Origin: Cyanobacteria bacterium P01_A01_bin.123
GTDB lineage: Bacteria > Cyanobacteriota > Cyanobacteriia > Phormidesmidales > Phormidesmidaceae
Reading direction: 5' to 3'
Assembly: GCA_039815185.1 (NCBI GenBank)
Contig: JBCBZT010000007.1
Coordinates: 1 to 64,000, forward strand
DNA length: 64,000 nucleotides
How positions within the stretch are numbered: position 1 is the stretch's first letter; every line of letters begins with the position of its first letter. This document shows positions 23,050 through 62,106 of this stretch, piece after piece. Position numbers and translations under genes: made by a program. Under the pieces are notes generated by a model. The model searched no databases and was not told the DNA's origin. It saw only the letters and a program-made list of their open reading frames with translations.

Positions 23050-23280
23050 AAGCTGTGGAAAAGTTGGGATTTTCTGTGGACAAGTGCTCAAATCCTTGGG
23101 GACAAATCGGCGATCGCCCGGGGAAAAATCATCCCCCCTCAAAACAAATGTGGAATAATCGCGATCTTTCTCACAAATTATCCACACCCCCCAATCAGGC
23201 CTCAATCCTTTTGAATCAAGGCATTTAGATCGTTCTCCCAATTTTCCACAGCCCCTACTACTCCTAATCTTTAAATATTC
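23050..23280. other. oriC: Probable chromosomal replication origin oriC
   Basis: DnaA boxes TGTGGAAAA (23054), TGTGGACAA (23075), TGGGGACAA (23097), TGTGGAATA (23149), TTATCCACA (23178), TTTTCCACA (23242). The last is followed by GCCC, CTA-CTA-CTC-CTA trios and an AT-rich run. Directly upstream of dnaN. Confidence 0.88.
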
Positions 23281-23523: not shown

Positions 23524-24669
23524 ATGAAATTTGTTTGCCCTCAGAGTGAACTCAACACCCACTTATCCCTCGTTAGCCGTGCTGTGCCATCGCGTCCTAG
23601 TAAGCCTGTACTAGCTAACGTACTTATCAATGTGGATGATAATGCCCAACAAGTCAGTTTGGTTGGCTTTGATGAAAGTCTGGGCATTACCACCCGATTT
23701 GCAGCAGCGGTTGAAATGGGCGGTACTTTGACTCTGCCAGCAAAATTGTTAGGAGATATTGTTGCCCGTTTACCCAATGAAGACATTGTGGTTGAAGCCA
23801 CCGAAGACGACACAACGGTTTCGCTCACCTGCTCTTCCGGGCATTATCAAGTCAGGGGATTAAGCGCAGAAGATTATCCAACCTTGCCGACGATTGACAA
23901 CGGCACGGTGGCTAATCTATCGGCAAATGCCTTGATTGAAGGTTTGCGGGGGTCGCTTTTTGCAGCTAGCTCAGATGAAACCAAGCAAGTTTTGACGGGC
24001 ATCCATCTCTTGGCAGCAGCAGATGCGTTAGAGTTTGCAGCCACAGATGGTCATCGGTTGGCGATGGTGCAAACCCAGGATAATGAGACAGAGGCTCCAG
24101 CAGAACCGACTGCGGAAGATATGAATGTCACTATCCCGGGCAAGGCGATGCGTGAACTGGAGCGGATTTTGCAAACCTATCCGGGAACTGAGGCGATCGC
24201 ATTGCAGTTTGATCAAACTCAAGTGGTATTCGAACTCGGCAATCAGCGAATCACGACCCGGTTATTGGAAGGTCAATACCCTAACTATCGCCAGTTGATT
24301 CCCCATAAATTTGAACGGCAAACCACTCTTGATCGCAAGCAGTTAACGGCTGCCCTAGAACGGATTGCGGTATTGGCAGATCAGAAGAACAATATTGTTA
24401 AATTGACGCTGGATAGCAGTGCCCAAACGCTGGCTGTATCTGTAGAAGCACAGGAAGTGGGCAGCGGTCGAGAAGAAGTTCCGGCTCAAATTACGGGGGA
24501 AGATTTAGAGATTGCCTTCAACGTGCGCTATTTACTCGATGGCCTCAAAGTTCTTCCTAGCTCTGAAGTGCAGTTGCAGTGTAATGCTGCGACTAGTCCA
24601 GCAATTTTGACGCCGCTAGGGGGATTTAAGATGACCTACCTGGTGATGCCCGTGCAAATCAGATCCTGA
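23524..24669 (+). CDS. dnaN: DNA polymerase III beta sliding clamp
   Basis: AATDGHRLA, RLLEGQYPNYRQLIP, IAFNVRYLLDGL, YLVMPVQIR. Confidence 0.98.
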   Translation: MKFVCPQSELNTHLSLVSRAVPSRPSKPVLANVLINVDDNAQQVSLVGFDESLGITTRFAAAVEMGGTLTLPAKLLGDIVARLPNEDIVVEATEDDTTVSLTCSSGHYQVRGLSAEDYPTLPTIDNGTVANLSANALIEGLRGSLFAASSDETKQVLTGIHLLAAADALEFAATDGHRLAMVQTQDNETEAPAEPTAEDMNVTIPGKAMRELERILQTYPGTEAIALQFDQTQVVFELGNQRITTRLLEGQYPNYRQLIPHKFERQTTLDRKQLTAALERIAVLADQKNNIVKLTLDSSAQTLAVSVEAQEVGSGREEVPAQITGEDLEIAFNVRYLLDGLKVLPSSEVQLQCNAATSPAILTPLGGFKMTYLVMPVQIRS

Positions 24670-25858: not shown

Positions 25859-25931
25859 TGTCCTCAGGACTGTCCGATGTCGGACAAACTAAGGCATACT
25901 GTAAGTATGTCCTTAGGATTGTCCAGAGGAT
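25859..25931. repeat. Repeat array A: 12-bp units TGTCCnnAGGA(C/T) plus palindromes, ending 6 nt before the ATG of ORF 25938
   Basis: TGTCCTCAGGAC (25859), TGTCCGA-TG-TCGGACA (25871), CATACT-GTA-AGTATG (25895), TGTCCTTAGGAT (25908), TGTCCAGAGGAT (25920). Confidence 0.85.
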
Positions 25932-25937
25932 ACTCTC

Positions 25938-26498
25938 ATGAGTAGTGGAGACATCGATCGCATACCTGTTGCCCAGCTGCCGCAGCGATACAGCCTGGCA
26001 CGCAGTGCTGTGTATACGCGCATGGATGCACTCAAGATTAAGCCAGAGAGAGTGGGTAATCGCGCCTATGTCAATGCGGCTCAGGTGAAGCTACTTGATG
26101 AGCTGCACTATTTCATTCAGCGTGGGGGTAATACGGCAGAGTTCTTGGCGATGCGGGGTAAGCCGCCAGCCGCTAAACCACCAGTGGATGAATCTTCAGA
26201 CTTAACGATTACACCCGATAATCTGATGGGGCTGATTCGCGCGATCGCGTCTGAGTTGGCGAATCAATTCCAACCTGTATTGCCAGAAGCGGATCCGGTC
26301 TCTCATTTTGAAAAACTGGAACAGGCTGTTAAAAATGGCTGGTTGCTAAGCACGGCGGAGATTGCCAATTTACTAGATCTGTCGCCCTCTCAGTTTCAGC
26401 ATTACGATCATTTTCAAGATGCGGGCTTTGTCTTTACCCGTGCAGGCTATCGGATGGGGGGAGATTTGGCTTGGCGAGTATCTAAGATGCGGCGTTAG
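25938..26498 (+). CDS. Putative DNA-binding protein (N-terminal MerR/Xis-like winged HTH, second HTH-like C-terminal region)
   Basis: VAQLPQRYSLARSAVYTRMDALKIKPERVGNRAYV (helix-turn-helix plus wing); LLSTAEIANLLDLSPS. The fold call is by pattern only. Confidence 0.7.
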   Translation: MSSGDIDRIPVAQLPQRYSLARSAVYTRMDALKIKPERVGNRAYVNAAQVKLLDELHYFIQRGGNTAEFLAMRGKPPAAKPPVDESSDLTITPDNLMGLIRAIASELANQFQPVLPEADPVSHFEKLEQAVKNGWLLSTAEIANLLDLSPSQFQHYDHFQDAGFVFTRAGYRMGGDLAWRVSKMRR

Positions 26499-26587
26499 TG
26501 GGGGATAGTTGTGCTAACGATGTGATTGTGAGGGAAATTCCTGCGTTCCCAATTAATCAGATTTTGCGTTGCTAGGTCTCATCCCTT

Positions 26588-26878
26588 ATGATAGAAAAAA
26601 GCCAGCAGTTGCAGCTGCTGGCAGATCATTGGATCGAATTTAGCTTCTTTTTTAGCGTCGAGGGTGATGTTGGTGTTAGCACTGGCATCACCTTTGGTTT
26701 GGTGACGGACTGTCAGCCGCTCTGGCTTTTGTACGCCAGCAGGAACTCTACCCACCAGTGGAGGCGTTTTCCTTGGACCCTCCAGTCTTGTTGTTCTGAT
26801 TCTAACATGTCCGCAGGACAATCCGCAGGACAATCCTATGAAAGTTCCTCAGGATTATCCTTAGGACTGCTTGGATGA
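26588..26878 (+). CDS. Small hypothetical protein whose C-terminus runs through repeat array B
   Basis: 96-aa ATG ORF; tail SAGQ-SAGQ-SYES-SSGL-SLGL is encoded by the 12-bp repeats. Confidence 0.45.
   Translation: MIEKSQQLQLLADHWIEFSFFFSVEGDVGVSTGITFGLVTDCQPLWLLYASRNSTHQWRRFPWTLQSCCSDSNMSAGQSAGQSYESSSGLSLGLLG
26808..26867. repeat. Repeat array B: five tandem 12-bp units nnTCCnnAGGA(C/T)
   Basis: TGTCCGCAGGAC AATCCGCAGGAC AATCCTATGAAA GTTCCTCAGGAT TATCCTTAGGAC; overlaps the dinB stop codon. Confidence 0.88.
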
Positions 26879-27975
26879 GAAAAATCTTGGGGTACCATCT
26901 CGGGCATAAAAGGTAGTTCAAGTTGAATATAGGGCATGTCAGGTGGGTTGAGGTTGGCGATCGCGATACCCAGCAGCCGTACCTGTTGGGCTTGATTGAG
27001 ATGGGTCAGCAACAGCGATCGCGCCATGTCAAAGATTGCGGGGTTTTCGTAGATCGGTGTGGTGACTGTACGGCTGCGGGTGATTTGCTGATAATTGGCA
27101 TATTTGACCTTTAGGGTCAGAGTATACCCCCAGCGCTTCTGTCGTTCGAGTCGGGAGGCGACCTGTTGAGCAATGGTCTCCAGGGCATTAACCATGTCCT
27201 CCAGAGAGGACAGATCGGTGGAAAAGCTTTGCTCTGCACCGATAGATTTGCGAATCCGGTTAGGGTTCACGGGTCTGTTGTCCTGTCCTCTAGACATGCG
27301 GTAATAGTAGTGGCCGACTTTACCAAAGCGGGCAACCAAATCCCCTTCCTGCCAGTGCTTTAAATCTGCCCCGGTATGGATGCCTAAGGCTTTCAATTTA
27401 CGGGCGGTGACTTCGCCGACGCCATAGAATTTATCAATCGGTAATGCGGCAACAAAGGATTCAACTTGATCGGGGGCAATCAAATAGAGACCGTCGGGTT
27501 TGTCCATTGCTGAGGCAATTTTGGCCAGAAACTTATTCACTGAAACGCCGGCAGAGGCAGTGAGTTGGATTTCAGTGTGGATGGTTTGTTTGATCTCACG
27601 GGCGATCGCCATAGCAGATCCGATTCCCGGTTTGTTTTCAGTCACGTCTAGATAAGCTTCGTCTAGCGCCAACGGTTCGACTAAATCGGTGTATTGGAAG
27701 AAGATTTGCTGAATCTGTTGAGAGACGGTCTTGTACACATCAAACCGGGGTCTGGCAAAAATCAGTGTGGGGCACAGTTGAGCTGCGATGCGGGAGGGCA
27801 TTGCCGAATGGATGCCGTATTGGCGGGCTTCATAGCTTGCAGCTGCCACAGCCCCCCGTTTTTCGGGTCTACCTCCCACGACAATCGGTTTACCGCGATA
27901 ATCGGGGTGATCTCGCTGTTCTACTGAGGCATAGAACGCATCCATGTCGATGTGGATGATTTTGCGAACAGCCAT
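26836..27975 (-). CDS. dinB: DNA polymerase IV
   Basis: RKIIHIDMDAFYASVEQRD, ASYEAR, LALDEAYLD, NKFLAKIAS, RKSIGAE. Confidence 0.98.
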   Translation of the reverse strand: MAVRKIIHIDMDAFYASVEQRDHPDYRGKPIVVGGRPEKRGAVAAASYEARQYGIHSAMPSRIAAQLCPTLIFARPRFDVYKTVSQQIQQIFFQYTDLVEPLALDEAYLDVTENKPGIGSAMAIAREIKQTIHTEIQLTASAGVSVNKFLAKIASAMDKPDGLYLIAPDQVESFVAALPIDKFYGVGEVTARKLKALGIHTGADLKHWQEGDLVARFGKVGHYYYRMSRGQDNRPVNPNRIRKSIGAEQSFSTDLSSLEDMVNALETIAQQVASRLERQKRWGYTLTLKVKYANYQQITRSRTVTTPIYENPAIFDMARSLLLTHLNQAQQVRLLGIAIANLNPPDMPYIQLELPFMPEMVPQDFSHPSSPKDNPEELS

Positions 27976-54752: not shown

Positions 54753-57700
54753 ATGCACAGTAAGCAGCGATGGTTAGGGCTAATGCCTTTGGCCTTATTG
54801 GTGTGTGGCCTACCTGTGATGGCCAGGGGAGCATTGCAACCCGCAGTTTTGCAGGATAGGAATACCGAACTAAAAGCAGTGCCCCTGACAAAGGAAGTGC
54901 TACAGGGTCGCTCTCAAAATTCAGGGTCTAGTGGGTCGAAGCAATCTGTCATTGGGCAAGATAGCTTATTGCGAGTTGAAGGGAGCCTATCCGAGGGAGA
55001 CGCCACTCTCAATGACGGCAGCCTATATGAAGAACACACGTTCCAGGGACAGGCAGGGCAGATTGTCAGAATCACGCTGGAAAGTGGTGTATTCGACACC
55101 TATTTGCTACTAGTAGCGCCATCGGGAGCACTCATTGCTGAAGATAACGATGGTGGTAGCGACAGCAATTCTGAAATCGTTGTGCAGTTACCTGAGGATG
55201 GGCCATACCGAGTATTGGCGAATGCCTATGACCAGACTGGACGGGGAGCGTATCAGCTTGTAGCTGTCATGGCTAACGTTGAGGATTTCTCTCAAGTAGA
55301 GGCCGATCGTCTTTTTCAGCTTGGTATTGACCAGTTTCGTGTCAGCCAGTTTCGAGCGGCACTAGCATCATGGCAAGCAGCTTTGGAGCTTTATCGAGTG
55401 CTTGAAAATCGCCAGGGGGAAGCAAACTCACTGGGGAATTTAGGTCTGGCTTACGACAGCCTGGGCAACTATCAGCAGGCCATCGACCACCATCAACAAT
55501 CCTTGGCCATCAAGCGTAACCTCGGCGATCGCCGAGGGGAGGCAAACTCATTGAGCAATCTAGGCCTAGCCTACGACAGCCTAGGCAACTACCCGCAAGC
55601 CATCGACTATTATCAGCAAGCTTTAGACATTGCTCGCGATATCGGCGATCGCCCAGGGGAAGCTGCCTCATTGGGCAATCTGGGCAATGCTCACTATAGT
55701 TTGGGAGATTATCGGCAGGCCATCAACTATCTTACGCAAACCTTAGCGATCGCCCGTGATATCGGTAACCGTCAAAGGGAGGCAGGTTCATTAGGAAATT
55801 TGGGTCTTGCTCACTATAGTTTGGGAGATTACCCGCAAGCCATCGACTATTATCAGCAAGCCTTAGCCATTGCTGGCGATATCGGTAACCGCCAGGGGGA
55901 AGCGAATGCATTGGGCAATCTGGGCAACACCTACCGCAATTTGGGGAATTACCAGCAGGCGATTGACTACCATCAACAATCCTTAGCCATTGCCCGCGAT
56001 ATCGGCGATCGGCAGGGGGAGGTGAACTCATTGGGCAATCTGGGCAACGCCTACCGCAGCCTGAGAGACCATGAACAGGCCATTAGTCATCATGAGCAAT
56101 CTTTAGACATTGCTCATGATATTGGCTATCGCCAGGGGGAGGCGAATGCTTTAGGGAGTTTGGGCAACACCTATCACCGTCTAGGGGACTACCAGCAGGC
56201 CATCGACTACCATCAGCGACACCTAGCCATTGCCCGCGATATTAGCGATCGGCAGGGGGAAACGAACTCATTAGGAAACTTGGGTAGTGCTTACGGTAAT
56301 CTTGGAAACTACTCGCAAGCCATCGATTACTTTGAGCAAACTTTAACTATTGCCCGCGACATCGGCAACCAAGCTGGTGAGGCCAATGCTCTGAACAATC
56401 TTGGCTTTGCTTATCTGTGGTTGAACCGTCTTGCAGAAGCAGAAGATGTTTTCTTGAACGCGATCGCTGTTTTAGAAAACTTACGCAACACTGGCTTAAG
56501 CGATGCTGACAAAATTCGTTTTTTTGATACCCAGACTAATGCTTACAAAGGGCTTGAACAGGCACTGATTCTGCAAGATAAGCCAGTCCAAGCTTTAGAA
56601 GTGGCCGAGCGGGGACGTTCCCGCGCATTCATAGAGTTGTTAGCCGAACGTCTATCTCTGCAGCAGGCAGAACAACTCTCCTCAGAACCACCAGACTTTA
56701 CCAAAATTCAGCAGATTGCGGCTGCTCAACAGGGTGTTTTGGTGGAATATTCACTGATTAACGGTGGACCTGACAGTCCTTCTCTCTATATATGGGTTGT
56801 ACAACCCGATGGTGAACTAGACTTTCGCAAGGTGTCCCTAGACGATAACGCCCTTGACTTAGCCGAGTTGGTTAGCCAGAGCCGACAGTCCATCGGTGTG
56901 CGTGGCAGGGGCGGTGGATTTGAGCTGGTGGAGGCCCCCACTGGAAATGAGCAACTGCGCCAACTGTATCAACTCCTGATTGAGCCGATTGCTGACCTAT
57001 TACCCCCCCATCCAGAACAACGGGTCATCTTCATGCCCCAGGGTGAGTTATTCCTGGTGCCATTTCCCGCCCTGATTGATGAATCAGGCGATTACCTAAT
57101 TGAGAAGCACACCATATTAACTGCGCCGTCTATTCAAACTTTAGATCTCACTCGACGACAGCGCATGGTTCTTGAAATTTCCGATTCACTGGAGGCTGAA
57201 TCTATCCTCACTGTGGGTAATCCCACCATGCCGGAGGTATGGAACCCAGATGCATCTGCCTATCAGCAACTGTCTAACTTGCCGGGGGCAGAGCGAGAAG
57301 CCTTAGAGATTGCTAACTTCTTCAATATCCAACCCTTGCTCAATGCTGATGCGACGGAGCAGATGATCAAACAGCGGATTGAAGCTGCTCGTATTGTTCA
57401 CTTGGCAACTCACGGTTTATTGGAATATGGCACTCCTGAGGACTCTGGCGTGAGAGATTTACCCGGGGCCATTGCCTTAGCGCCAGGGCAGGGTGAAGAC
57501 GGTTTACTCACCTCTGCTGAAATTAGAACCTTTAACTTGCAAGCAGAGTTGGTCGTGCTTAGTGCCTGTGATACTGGCCGGGGCCGCATTACTGGGGATG
57601 GGGTGATTGGGCTGTCTCGATCTTTTATCGAAGCCGGAACACCCAGCGTGATTGTGTCTCTGTGGTCGGTACCAGATGCGCCGACGGCAGAGTTGATGAC

Positions 57701-57896: not shown

Positions 57897-59095
57897 CAGG
57901 ACTTACGCATTGACAAATGAGTAAATTCGTGGGTTGGAGATAAAAGGTGTTTTCAGGACTTACGCATTGACAAATGAGTAAATTCGTGGGTTGGAGATAA
58001 AAGGTGTTTTATCGAGCAACCCTTGCGCATCGCCACTAAACCCTCAACCGCTCACTGCACGATCGATCTCTACGTCCGCTATCTGCTCGCCCAACCGCAA
58101 GGGTCAGGCTGTTGTGAACTTGCTGAGATCCTTAAGACGGTGTCCCATGACAGCATCAATCGATTCCTGTGCCGAGAACGCTATGAGCCGAAGGATCTCT
58201 TTGATGAACTGGTCAATCAAGGCTGGCTAGATTTAGTCGGTGGCGTGTTGAGCGTAGACGATACGGTGCTGGAGAAACCCTACTCACAGCGAGAAGCCAC
58301 GGCTCTTTTAGGCTATTTCTGGAGTAGTAAAGCTGCCAAGCCAGTGCTGGGACTCTCATTAGTCACGCTCTTCTACACCAGTGCCACTGGCTTCCAAGTG
58401 CCCGTCAACTATCGTCTCTATGACAAAGCGGAGGGCAAAACCAAAAATCAGTACTTTCAAGAGATGTGGCAAGAAGTCAGGCAGTGGGGGCTACGGCCTC
58501 AAGCTGTCACCAGCGATACTTGGTACGCCGCTAAAGCTAATCTCAACTTGCTCAAAAACGACCAGATGGGGTTTTTGGTCGGCGTTGCCAAGAATCGGCA
58601 GGTCCGTTTAACATCCCAGCAGCCCTATCAGCGGGTGGAGACCCTGACGATTCCCGACGCCGGGCTTCTGGTTTATCTTAAGGGAGTCGGGCCAGTCAAG
58701 GTCTTTTGCCAGTGCTTCAAAAACGAATCGTGTCGGTATTATGCCTTGTACTTGCCTGACCCTAAGGCTTTGGCGAGCGCGGGAGCGGCTGACTTCGAGC
58801 GGTTGCACACTCTCCATTGGGGCATTGAATGTTTTCACCGCGCCGGAAAACAACTGTGTGCCCTACGGCGCTTTCGAGTGCGCCTGAAGGAAGCCATCCA
58901 CACTCATATCTTTTGTGCTCTGCGAGCCTTTGTCGAGTTGGAATTGCAAGTTTGGCAGCAGCAGCTAGGCAATTGGGATGAACTCCAACGTCACCTCTAT
59001 CAAGAGGTCGCTCGGCAGTTCATCCTCCAAGCGCCTTTGACGAGGAAGACGCCTTGAACCCTGATGTTGTTGAATTTGTCAATGCGTAAGTCCTG
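57897..59095 (+). mobile_element. IS701-family insertion sequence with a duplicated 57-bp left end and 5-bp TTAAA target duplication
   Basis: 22-bp IRs CAGGACTTACGCATTGACAAAT (57897 and 57954) and ATTTGTCAATGCGTAAGTCCTG (59074-59095); TTAAA at 57892-57896 and 59096-59100. Confidence 0.93.
58023..59057 (+). CDS. IS701-family DDE transposase
   Basis: SHDSINRFL, SVDDTVLEKPY, TSDTWY, HWGIECFHRAGKQ. Confidence 0.92.
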   Translation: MRIATKPSTAHCTIDLYVRYLLAQPQGSGCCELAEILKTVSHDSINRFLCRERYEPKDLFDELVNQGWLDLVGGVLSVDDTVLEKPYSQREATALLGYFWSSKAAKPVLGLSLVTLFYTSATGFQVPVNYRLYDKAEGKTKNQYFQEMWQEVRQWGLRPQAVTSDTWYAAKANLNLLKNDQMGFLVGVAKNRQVRLTSQQPYQRVETLTIPDAGLLVYLKGVGPVKVFCQCFKNESCRYYALYLPDPKALASAGAADFERLHTLHWGIECFHRAGKQLCALRRFRVRLKEAIHTHIFCALRAFVELELQVWQQQLGNWDELQRHLYQEVARQFILQAPLTRKTP

Positions 59096-59211: not shown

Positions 59212-62106
59212 ATGCATAAGTGGCATCAATGGTCAGGGTTAATCGCGTTGATGCTTCTGGCATGGCGGATGCCTGTCGCTGCAAGGGAACCACTGAGGCT
59301 TAACGCGCTAGAGTATCCACCTTTAAGGGCAGAGCCTGCCATTCTGCCGCAGGAGAAATTGCAGGCTCTGCCACAAACTGAGGTTGCCAATGACTTAAAA
59401 CAAGCAAACACATCGCAACAGATACTGCTCCAAGTTGAGGGAAATTTAGCTGATGGGGATGCCAGCTTCGATAATGGCAGTCTCTATGATGTGCATACGT
59501 TTCAAGGACAGGCGGGGCAAATCGTCAGGATCACACTGGAAAGCCAAGACTTTGATACCTACCTGCTGCTCAATGCGCCCTCGGGTGAGCAGATTGCCGC
59601 AAACGATGACGGCGGAAGCGGTACTAATGCAAAGATTGTCGTGCAGTTGCCTGAAGACGGGGTATACCGAGTGCTGGCTATCGCCTATTACCAGACGGGG
59701 CGGGGAAACTATCAACTAATGGTTAGGACTGCTGGTGAGTCAGATCTCCCTGGTGAGTCAGATCTCCAGCGAGCAAACCAAGAAGCTGAAGCCGATCGCT
59801 TGTTGCAGCAGGGCATTGAACAATATGGCGCTAGCCAGTCTCCGGAAGCCCTCGCCTCCTGGCAGGCCGCATTAGCGCTTTATCGCCAGTTGGGAAATCG
59901 CAAAGGGGAAGCCAATGCCCTGGGTAGTTTGGGCGTCGCTTACGACCGTCTGGGGGACGACCGCCGCGCTATTGACTTCTATGAGCAATCCTTAGCCATT
60001 GACCGTGAAATCGGCGATCGCCAGGGAGAAGCCACTACTCTGAATAATTTAGGTCTCGCTTACGGCGGTCTAAGAGACTACCGCCGCGCTATTGACCTCC
60101 ATGAGCAATCCTTAGCCATCGCTCGTGAACTCGGCGATCGTCAGGGGGAAGCCAATGCCCTGGGTAGTTTGGGTATCGCTTATTACCGTCTAGGAGACTA
60201 CCGCCGCGCCATTGACTTCCATGAGCAATCTTTAGCCATTGACCGTGAAATCGGCGATCGCCGGGGGGAAGCCTATGCGCTGGGAAATTTGGGCTTCGCT
60301 TACGAAGCTCTAGGAGACGACCGCCGCGCCATTGACTTCCAAGAGCAAGCTTTAGCCATTGCCCGTGAAATCGGCGATCGCCAGGCAGAAGCCAATGCCT
60401 TAACAAACCTAGCCTACGCTTTGGAAGCGGAAGCCCAACCCGAACTCGCTATCGTCTTTTTCAAGCAAGCGGTCAATACCTTCGAAGCCATCCGCGACAG
60501 CAACCGAGGTCTAGAAGCTGACCTGCAAAGCTCCTACACAGCCACCGTCGAAGACACCTATCGCCATCTGGCCGATCTACTGCTCCAGCAAGACCGCATC
60601 CTGGAAGCTCAGCGAGTGCTAGACTTGCTCAAAGTGCAAGAGCTCGACAACTACCTGCGCGGCGTTCGTCGCAACGCCGACACCGAAGCTGGTGTTACCT
60701 TCCGCCCCGCCGAGCAGGAGCTCTTGCAGCGCTATACCGCCAACCAAGATCAGCTGATTGCCCTGGGACAGGAACGGGCCGAACTGGCTAAAATTCCCCG
60801 TGACCAGCGCACCGCCGCTCAAGCCGAGCGGATTGTGGAACTGCGCCAGCTAGAGCAAGCGATCCGGCAGCAGTTCCGAGGCTTCTTTGAGCAGAGCGAA
60901 ATTGTGGAACTGGTAAATCGCCTGCGTCGCACCGTAGGAGCCGCCAACATTGAACTCGCCGAACTCAACGCCCTGCGGGACAACCTGCAAAACCTGGATC
61001 AAGACGCTGTTGTGCTCTATCCCCTCATCCTTGAGGATCGACTAGAACTGGTGCTGGTCACCCCCGATACGGCCCCCATCCGCCGCACCGTCAGCGTCCG
61101 CCGGGAAGACCTCAACCGCACCATCGGCGAACTGCGCCACGCCCTGGAGTCCCCCAGTCGCGATGCGGTTACCCCCGCTCAGCAGCTCTACGATTGGTTG
61201 ATTCGCCCGATTGAGGCCGACTTGGCCCAGGCGGAAGCCAAAACCATCATCTACGCCCCCGACTTGCAACTGCGCTACGTCCCGCTAGCGGCGCTGCACG
61301 ACGGTGACCAGTGGCTAATCGAAACCTACCGGGTCAATAACATCACCGCCGCCAGCCTGGACGATTTGGACAATGCCCCATCTCCGGGCGGGTTGAACAT
61401 TTTGGCTACCGCCTTTACCGAAGGTCGCCATGAGGTACCCGTGGGTGAGCAAACCCTACGCTTCTCGGGATTGCCCTTTGCCGGGGTAGAAGTGGAAAAC
61501 CTAGCCACGCTGGTTCCCGGCACGGAGCAGCGCTTAAACGAAAACTTCAGCGCCGACATCGTCTATGAAATGGATGATTACCGGATTGTGCATTTGGCAA
61601 CCCACGCCATTTTCAATCCGGGGCCGCCAGAGAATTCGTTTATTCTCTTTGGCAACGGCGATCGCGCCACCCTGGCCGACGTGAAAAACTGGAGCTTTCC
61701 CAATGTGGAGCTAATTGTGCTAAGCGCCTGTGAAACCGCCGTGGGAGATGTGCCCTTGGGTAATGGGGAAGAGATTTTGGGCTTTGGCTATTTGATGCAG
61801 TTGGCGGGAGCGGATGCTGCGATCGCCTCCCTCTGGGCAGTGGACGATGGCGGCACTCAGATTTTGATGAATGGATTTTACGATGTGCTCAACCAGGGCG
61901 GACTAGCTAAGGCAGAAGCGCTGCGGCAGGCGCAGATATCGCTGATTCGCGCCGGGGAAGAGGGGCGAGCGACAGGCAGTGGTGGCGACGATAATCGCGG
62001 TGGGTTTGAGCTGGTGCCGACTGACAATGGCTCGAATCTCGACCCATCGGATCTGAGCCATCCCCACTATTGGGCACCGTTTATTTTAATTGGCAATGGG
62101 CTGTAG
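59212..62106 (+). CDS. Signal peptide-PPC-TPR-CHAT protease (copy 2)
   Basis: PPC domain, near-identical 120-bp TPR repeats, HLATHA, LSACETA, HPHYWAPFILIGNGL. Confidence 0.93.
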   Translation: MHKWHQWSGLIALMLLAWRMPVAAREPLRLNALEYPPLRAEPAILPQEKLQALPQTEVANDLKQANTSQQILLQVEGNLADGDASFDNGSLYDVHTFQGQAGQIVRITLESQDFDTYLLLNAPSGEQIAANDDGGSGTNAKIVVQLPEDGVYRVLAIAYYQTGRGNYQLMVRTAGESDLPGESDLQRANQEAEADRLLQQGIEQYGASQSPEALASWQAALALYRQLGNRKGEANALGSLGVAYDRLGDDRRAIDFYEQSLAIDREIGDRQGEATTLNNLGLAYGGLRDYRRAIDLHEQSLAIARELGDRQGEANALGSLGIAYYRLGDYRRAIDFHEQSLAIDREIGDRRGEAYALGNLGFAYEALGDDRRAIDFQEQALAIAREIGDRQAEANALTNLAYALEAEAQPELAIVFFKQAVNTFEAIRDSNRGLEADLQSSYTATVEDTYRHLADLLLQQDRILEAQRVLDLLKVQELDNYLRGVRRNADTEAGVTFRPAEQELLQRYTANQDQLIALGQERAELAKIPRDQRTAAQAERIVELRQLEQAIRQQFRGFFEQSEIVELVNRLRRTVGAANIELAELNALRDNLQNLDQDAVVLYPLILEDRLELVLVTPDTAPIRRTVSVRREDLNRTIGELRHALESPSRDAVTPAQQLYDWLIRPIEADLAQAEAKTIIYAPDLQLRYVPLAALHDGDQWLIETYRVNNITAASLDDLDNAPSPGGLNILATAFTEGRHEVPVGEQTLRFSGLPFAGVEVENLATLVPGTEQRLNENFSADIVYEMDDYRIVHLATHAIFNPGPPENSFILFGNGDRATLADVKNWSFPNVELIVLSACETAVGDVPLGNGEEILGFGYLMQLAGADAAIASLWAVDDGGTQILMNGFYDVLNQGGLAKAEALRQAQISLIRAGEEGRATGSGGDDNRGGFELVPTDNGSNLDPSDLSHPHYWAPFILIGNGL

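Follow-up and report, generated by a model that had tools for sequence, protein, structure and literature searches.

StbA is a single DNA-binding partition protein that binds short tandem repeats beside its own gene. Among small repressors of cyanobacteria, CvkR represses the tracrRNA unit of CAST, and TrcR represses a tRNA operon. Pseudoknot I of the CrPV IGR IRES is a pairing of five base pairs. As outlined in PMC3517527, a CCU triplet and the GCU codon of this IRES take the P and A sites, and pseudoknot I of dicistrovirus IGR IRESs sets GCU as the first codon (outlined in PMC3517527 and PMC4709265). The outline of their domain plan in PMC11500499 and PMC4914108 describes pSK1 Par, RacA, and Streptococcus RocS as segregation proteins with a MerR-type winged helix-turn-helix (HTH) domain.

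We analyzed a stretch of 64,000 nucleotides (here termed the window), in which an earlier note had proposed a single-protein centromere system that organizes or segregates the oriC region. Our analysis favors a different reading. The 12-bp repeats at this locus are most likely the operators of one small DNA-binding protein and not a segregation centromere. The architecture is quite likely that of a two-gene cassette, in which a winged-HTH repressor and a structured RNA lie under convergent promoters. Overall, the locus is probably best explained by an autorepressor whose only visible other target is the structured RNA. The features on the side of the protein gene are the following.

25938 to 26498, plus strand: gene of the 186-aa protein (AlphaFold2, fold searches, 175 homologues).
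25859 to 25886, no strand assigned: putative operator doublet 1 upstream of the gene, covering the -35 region of the HTH promoter, with one good and one degenerate unit (the TGTCCGA palindrome).
25895 to 25900, plus strand: putative -10 hexamer CATACT of the HTH gene, placed by its position between the two doublets.
25908 to 25931, no strand assigned: putative operator doublet 2, covering both the predicted transcription start and the ribosome-binding site AGAGGA (25925 to 25930).
26193 to 26201, no strand assigned: in-frame operator position in the linker-coding region, degenerate in the window (3 mismatches).
26808 to 26867, no strand assigned: putative downstream operator array of two units, one degenerate unit, and two units, at about -16 to -75 of the RNA promoter.

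The window is cyanobacterial and contains dnaN (23524 to 24669) and dinB (26836 to 27975). A cluster of three exact and two one-mismatch DnaA boxes is found at 23054 to 23250, upstream of dnaN, which agrees with the distance of ~2.6 kb from oriC given previously for the locus. The dnaA gene of the host genome is on another contig (C95:198013-199458), and two further three-box clusters are present in this genome (C26:66452 and C61:10866). The window also contains TPR-like coding sequence that repeats with a period of 120 bp (55408 to 56370 and 59897 to 60399), and at 57897 to 58010 a stretch of 57 bp is duplicated exactly in tandem.

The product of the ORF at 25938 is composed of a winged HTH (residues 7 to 75), a low-confidence linker (76 to 119), and an alpha/beta C-terminal domain (112 to 186). 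The AlphaFold2 model, built on 41 homologues, gives a confident N-terminal domain, so that the HTH fold proposed for this 186-aa ORF was borne out. The proposed likeness to RacA and pSK1 Par was also recovered: the DNA-binding domain of RacA was matched with Z 8.4 (rmsd 2.3 over 66) and that of pSK1 Par (8csh) with Z 7.8 (rmsd 1.2 over 53/53 residues), scores that are tied with those of ordinary MerR regulators. The N-terminal fold search also matched the CvkR structure 7xn2 (Z 6.9). AlphaFold2 places only a 17-residue helix (94 to 110) in the linker, in a region of pLDDT ~41. Folded alone, the C-terminal domain is alpha/beta with a pLDDT of 84; it has invariant surface-type aromatic and basic residues, and fold searches with this domain alone gave no clear structural match (best Z 3.6). 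A tandem-HTH origin of the protein is not supported, as the C-terminal and N-terminal domains have no profile similarity. The same C-terminal domain ends cyanobacterial proteins of 370 to 440 aa that have a different N-terminal repeat region (L031:559-1719, L032:655-1767, and L034:1321-2637), and the Atlas holds stand-alone look-alikes of 77 to 80 aa with scores under 0.9.

Scans of Pfam, NCBIfam, and PHROGs provided no family name for the protein, with a weak match to HTH_AsnC (E 0.04); an excisionase family was matched in 2/41 members, and the Pfam scan gave no match to DUF536. The family spans 1002 representatives at E<=0.001, and a homologue at E<=1e-30 was present in 75 of the 401 sampled genomes; named homologues come from Leptolyngbyaceae, Nodosilinea, Phormidesmis, and similar taxa. 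No match to the protein was found in viral contigs and phage records. A look-alike cluster of the full protein in the Atlas (222 members, score 0.94) is 77% viral by its records.

With pSK1 Par, RacA, and RocS, the locus shares the N-terminal MerR-type winged HTH, repeats beside the protein's own gene, and relatives on plasmids. It differs from them in that no long central coiled coil is seen in the model of the protein and no DUF536 was matched, in its chromosomal location that is not origin-linked, and in sites that lie on two promoters, one of them for an RNA. The pSK1 Par type has a disordered C terminus with DUF536 or an amphipathic helix, whereas the C-terminal domain of this protein is folded as alpha/beta. 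Unlike RacA and its ram sites, there is neither a spread of many sites over the origin-proximal chromosome nor a conserved link to the origin.

The three upstream TCC-nn-AGGA units (25861, 25910, and 25922) and the TGTCCGA palindrome (25871 to 25886) are present as previously reported. Five tandem units had been reported downstream; four of these are exact (26810, 26822, 26846, and 26858), and the fifth (26834) is degenerate and keeps the 12-bp register. The window contains 8 doublet matches compared with a shuffled mean of 0.05, and 0/100 shuffles reached 8. A search of the 8.09-Mb genome with a matrix derived from homologous sites gave 8 doublet matches scoring 12 bits or more, and 8/8 were at this locus; the spread of TCCnnAGGA arrays near oriC, for which the earlier note had suggested a scan, was not seen. 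Clusters of doublets were likewise confined to the cassette in 10 additional genomes, and the scattered single matches elsewhere are close to the level of a reversed-pattern control. An extra doublet in genome G001 lies inside a ribokinase-like ORF and was treated as chance.

Positional conservation was assessed in 91 gene copies (61 close and 30 distant), which are chosen loci with best matches first. A doublet just 5' of the start codon was present in 50/61 close-clade copies versus 1/30 distant copies. A doublet is also often found in homologues at about -77/-65 from the ATG, and TATAAT-like hexamers occur at the place corresponding to CATACT. The in-frame linker unit is present in 30 of the 61 close-clade copies; in homologues, the repeat lies in frame at +220 to +310 relative to the start codon and encodes runs of Ser-Ser-Gly-X, and expansions occur. 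Distant and plasmid members have different repeats of their own at the corresponding places, which indicates that site and protein change together. The autoregulation proposed previously is thus consistent with the positions of the repeats over the promoter and ribosome-binding site of the gene. The protein would bind pairs of the 12-bp palindromic units, probably cooperatively.

Downstream of the protein gene, the earlier note had placed a 96-aa ORF (26588 to 26878). This ORF does not appear to be a gene: it gave no Pfam match, frame-breaking indels occur across the aligned region, and no conserved start or stop was found in homologous regions among the matches listed. It lies antisense to a conserved gene for a structured RNA. 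An 84-aa minus-strand ORF was also discarded, as it had no notable family match and was not conserved. The neighboring RNA is conserved in many filamentous cyanobacteria and is predicted to be tightly folded, to stand alone, and to measure ~200 nt. The features on its side are the following.

26595 to 26792, minus strand: predicted ~200-nt RNA, delimited by conservation, convergent with the HTH gene, its 5' end placed from the -10 element.
26799 to 26807, minus strand: extended -10 element TG-n-TAGAAT of the predicted RNA promoter, directly beside the last operator unit.
26681 to 26787, minus strand: structured core (RNAalifold and pair counts).
26623 to 26680, minus strand: A/C-rich triplet-phased tail, which starts with GCN (Ala) at 26680.
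26595 to 26622, minus strand: intrinsic terminator of the RNA, with an 8-bp stem and a U-tract (terminator scan).

The element between the HTH stop codon and the array has ~70-85% nucleotide identity across families in which protein identity is ~50-60%. The order on the minus strand is array, extended -10, structured core, A/C-rich tail, and terminator, and beyond the terminator nearly all copies have the 3' end of the HTH gene, which is convergent with the RNA. In 69 distinct RNA copies, the motif of operator end plus TG-n-TA was found in 64, and at least one operator unit within ~100 nt upstream in 66. A consensus promoter scan listed neither the HTH promoter nor the RNA promoter. The array shares its last 32 nt with the 3' end of dinB, a convergent gene whose last ten codons (26836 to 26867) encode part of the array; the order dinB, array, RNA is common to the window and G001. 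The downstream array had been taken for a partition site and is better explained as the operator of this convergent RNA gene, which was missed earlier, because in G001 the array stayed with the RNA while the HTH gene is on another contig.

In the core, P1a and P1b close a three-way junction with P2-P3 and P4. P3 carries an invariant 8-nt loop (26761 to 26754), which is complementary to 26685 to 26680 (putative pseudoknot), and P5 is a variable hairpin (26707 to 26686) that accommodates insertions of up to ~200 nt. RNAalifold predicts the helices that had been read by eye. On 38 sequences, 98.1% of 1593 cells were paired in this fold, compared with 26-50% in slid controls, and both-sided changes were found in 22/42 pairs versus 10.1 +/- 1.8 in shuffles (0/500). 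In 29 further copies, aligned without structure, 1031/1044 cells were paired. The terminator helix is 93.8% paired, with compensatory changes in 4/6 pairs. These counts are to be read with two points in mind: the retrieval patterns partly fixed the loop, P4, and the pseudoknot strand and left the pairing of P1 and P2 free, and related genomes in the RNA comparisons are not independent.

When the region in the window was searched with the Rfam 15 covariance models, nothing was matched at E<=10; in four loci, apart from a neighboring tRNA, these models gave only sub-threshold matches (E 0.015-1, one locus). The RNA pattern had 0 matches in viral contigs and no match in plasmids, and by eye the host CRISPR repeats showed no evident match. 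Antitermination between terminator and P4 was rejected, since this pairing is not kept, by eye, in two copies with altered P4. The role of a riboswitch or cis-leader for a following gene was also rejected, because in nearly all copies the RNA is followed by the convergent HTH gene and not by a gene on the same strand. A literature search that covered ground other than the supplements of motif surveys, where a listing is possible, returned no account of the RNA or the protein.

The RNA is inherited together with one clade of the protein. A BLAST match to the RNA was obtained in 47/401 genomes, and the close gene was present in 47/47. The covariance model detected the RNA in 11 of 70 chosen genomes, 11/11 with the close gene, and in none of the chosen genomes with only a distant homologue or no homologue. 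At the level of loci, the RNA accompanied 55/61 close versus 0/30 distant gene copies. In a tree built with a quick method, 55/55 RNA-linked copies fell into one clade of 62 (SH-aLRT 99), with the plasmid members outside. The gene lay alongside the RNA in 21/23 metagenome loci; one of the others was cut, and one was unlinked. In G001, the RNA and the array are behind dinB, and an RNA away from the HTH gene keeps its terminator-like hairpin. Four genomes (G126, G346, G353, and G404) have a close-clade gene and no detectable RNA, indicating that the protein persists without the RNA; the locus of G332 is truncated by the end of its contig.

Tandem duplication of the gene or of the whole cassette is frequent (G012, L050; G010, L049; G018, L045; G006, L040; G395, L118 and L119). 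In G006, the usual place is occupied by a 3' half copy of the RNA, and a full copy lies upstream; in G395, additional copies of the RNA, accompanied by arrays, are found on other contigs. In loci of genus g18 (L045, L078-L080, L084, L085, L092, L095, and L120-L129), the cassette adjoins tRNA-Pro(GGG); where the RNA is lost in this genus, degenerate operator units persist before the tRNA, and L120 has a partial duplication of the tRNA. An integrase and a VapE-like gene adjoin the cassette in G018.

From the operators at both promoters, the confinement of genomic doublet clusters to the cassette, the RNA fold, and the co-inheritance, all of which come from sequence comparison, we infer binding, repression, and transcription. 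The protein would repress its own promoter and the convergent promoter of the ~200-nt RNA, and a signal, perhaps sensed by the C-terminal domain, would lift this repression. The RNA, ending at its own terminator, would be the output of the cassette. Like CvkR and TrcR, the protein is thus predicted to be a small cyanobacterial repressor that silences a neighboring RNA promoter; it differs from them in its operator, in the lack of Cas, transposase, or tRNA array, and in an RNA without an Rfam family.

As to what the RNA does, engagement of the ribosome without a start codon, at an Ala codon, is a tentative proposal that rests on the arrangement of loop and tail. GCN directly follows the five loop-complementary bases in 67/69 copies, with all four third bases represented. 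The pseudoknot helix is complementary in 98.7% of cells; three of its pairs are invariant, one changes on one side, and two have breaks, and no compensatory change was seen in 38 sequences, in which those bases had been fixed by the retrieval patterns. Where the loop length is non-standard, it is a multiple of 3 (8/8 cases, two of the eight being near-identical). Purines peak at codon position 1 of the GCN frame in 47/68 tails (12 ties and 9 other), and this frame has 30 stops compared with 55.6 +/- 6.5 in shuffles. Codon adaptation is 0.72 in the GCN frame, 0.60 in the AUG frame, and 0.75 in the third frame, the best frame being GCN in 29 copies versus the third frame in 40. Synonymous and non-synonymous counts are alike in the three frames (24/76, 28/70, and 24/85), and no selection on amino acids was seen in any of the three frames of the tail. 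A stop precedes the terminator in 24/50 copies in the GCN frame, and an in-frame start codon lies inside the core in 25/69 copies.

In the proposed mechanism, the invariant P3 loop would pair with the five bases directly before GCN as a mimic of the tRNA anticodon and codon, and the ribosome would read the A/C-rich tail from the Ala codon. The peptide would probably be unimportant, with ribosome occupancy as the effect. The tail includes CAUCACC (26669 to 26663), an alternative partner of the P5 3' strand, and this alternative helix would mask the first codons as an off state. In its fullest form, the proposal is of a chromosomal bacterial RNA that mimics a codon-paired tRNA, loads 70S ribosomes at Ala without AUG or Shine-Dalgarno as a native counterpart of the dicistrovirus IGR IRES, is silenced by a repressor derived from a plasmid stability module, and is released under stress to occupy or reroute ribosomes; taken as a whole, we consider this speculative and rather doubtful.

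The RNA resembles the dicistrovirus IGR IRES in a loop whose complement immediately precedes an Ala codon (GCN) and in a linker of variable length. It differs in being a bacterial, chromosomal, stand-alone RNA, in a linker that is a hairpin, in the lack of a long conserved ORF thereafter, in having one putative pseudoknot in a core of ~105 nt and not three, and in giving no match to an Rfam IRES. With tmRNA, it shares a start-codon-free Ala-Asn opening (ANNIV in the host tag, ANTNI in the RNA tail). Unlike tmRNA, it has no tRNA-like domain (none found by ARAGORN in the window), degron, or fixed stop, its tails differ among copies in length and in how they end, and it has CC where host tmRNAs have a conserved UA at -5/-4; the role of this UA before the resume codon is outlined in PMC2481249. 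A canonical tmRNA is present in the host genome on contig C83, and tmRNA ancestry was rejected since the alignment to the host tmRNA was not significant (44/300 shuffles as good). Judged by sequence, the cassette belongs to none of the known systems compared here, with expression of the RNA as a prediction.

Three other functions of the RNA were considered. The triplet phase and the triplet indels, together with the lack of amino-acid selection or a stop codon, are also accounted for if the RNA is a protein-binding decoy or scaffold, whose tail would be occupied by an oligomeric RNA-binding protein at three bases for each subunit. The binder could possibly be the C-terminal domain of the repressor itself, which would give feedback; co-inheritance with one protein clade and the aromatic and basic residues of this domain fit such a role. 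However, the domain is also present where no RNA lies close by, both in distant members of the family and in long proteins that are unrelated, and the avoidance of stops in one frame and the invariant loop complementary to the pre-GCN bases are left unexplained, so that we regard a decoy as possible and rather doubtful. A short mRNA switch, in which translation of a leader peptide rich in Pro, Thr, and Ser (MPVLTPTSP...) begins at an AUG or GUG in the P5 3' strand and is gated by a riboswitch-like core, would agree with the presence of AUG or GUG at this strand in 67/69 copies and with its use by two mutually exclusive helices. We nevertheless find it unlikely: a spaced Shine-Dalgarno site is lacking, pairing within P5 accounts for the start, the AUG frame relies on rare codons ending in A, has low adaptation, and reaches a stop before the terminator in only 27/50 copies, and no gene follows the terminator on the strand of the RNA. 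Regulation by base pairing, with mRNAs as targets in trans or with the repressor mRNA as the target of a read-through antisense transcript, is suggested by the convergent layout and a conserved single-stranded C/A-rich segment, but it is distinctly improbable given that no significant complement was found in the own genome (best E 0.07), that in G001 the RNA is not linked to the gene and in G006 it is directed away from it, and that the complex fold exceeds the needs of a seed.

Returning to the autorepressor with its RNA target, the proposed role of the locus in organizing or segregating the origin found no support in its position. The gene was less than 5 kb from dnaN in only 3 of the 16 genomes with both on one contig (the host genome, G006, and G018); the distance was 88-236 kb in three more and at least 369 kb in 10. 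It amounted to 0.37-2.86 Mb in 9 complete or near-complete chromosomes. Closeness of homologues to dnaN, which the earlier note had wished to see checked, is therefore not conserved in these 16 scorable genomes, and 98 ORFs from 16 loci revealed no shared neighbors, with unrelated housekeeping genes around the cassette. A single-protein centromere for the oriC region, for which the fold in common with RacA and pSK1 Par, the arrays that flank the gene and occur inside it, the few loci near dnaN, and relatives on small plasmids without ParA could be cited, is very improbable in view of these distances and unshared neighbors, sites not spread around the origin, an array that goes with the RNA promoter when unlinked from the gene, and a protein whose model shows no long central coiled coil and has a C terminus that is folded rather than disordered.

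The suspected kinship with plasmid proteins was found in the wider family, with members in 36 of 72,556 plasmid records; the plasmid members are outside the RNA-linked clade. The plasmid-borne relatives are distant (23-42% identity over most of the length), and the close clade resides among housekeeping genes. Distant members occur on plasmids of 13-146 kb (L002-L006 and L191-L197), and one such gene is on Synechocystis pSYSM. Each of six small plasmids examined over their full length (13-23 kb) has a distant member, most have a tyrosine recombinase, and several have an annotated replication protein. No ParA was detected on these six by tblastn or by Walker-A motif; one other member-bearing plasmid does have ParA. 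The plasmid members examined have their own repeat upstream and mostly again in the linker-coding region or just after the stop, and the covariance model found no RNA in five plasmid loci. These distant relatives may be single-gene plasmid stability modules, from which the close protein clade likely descends; the partition idea may thus hold for the plasmid relatives and the ancestry, not for the locus in the window.

The RNA matches no catalogued Rfam family, and orphan RNA motifs are otherwise found often. Here, a covarying bacterial RNA outside Rfam comes with its own regulator and operator, and one knockout should switch the RNA on. If the arrangement of pseudoknot and Ala codon loads ribosomes, it would be a native bacterial element for start-codon-free initiation outside tmRNA. 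Members of the wider family, each with a repeat of its own both before the gene and within it, are candidate factors in the maintenance of small cyanobacterial plasmids that lack ParA, a point that bears on vector design.
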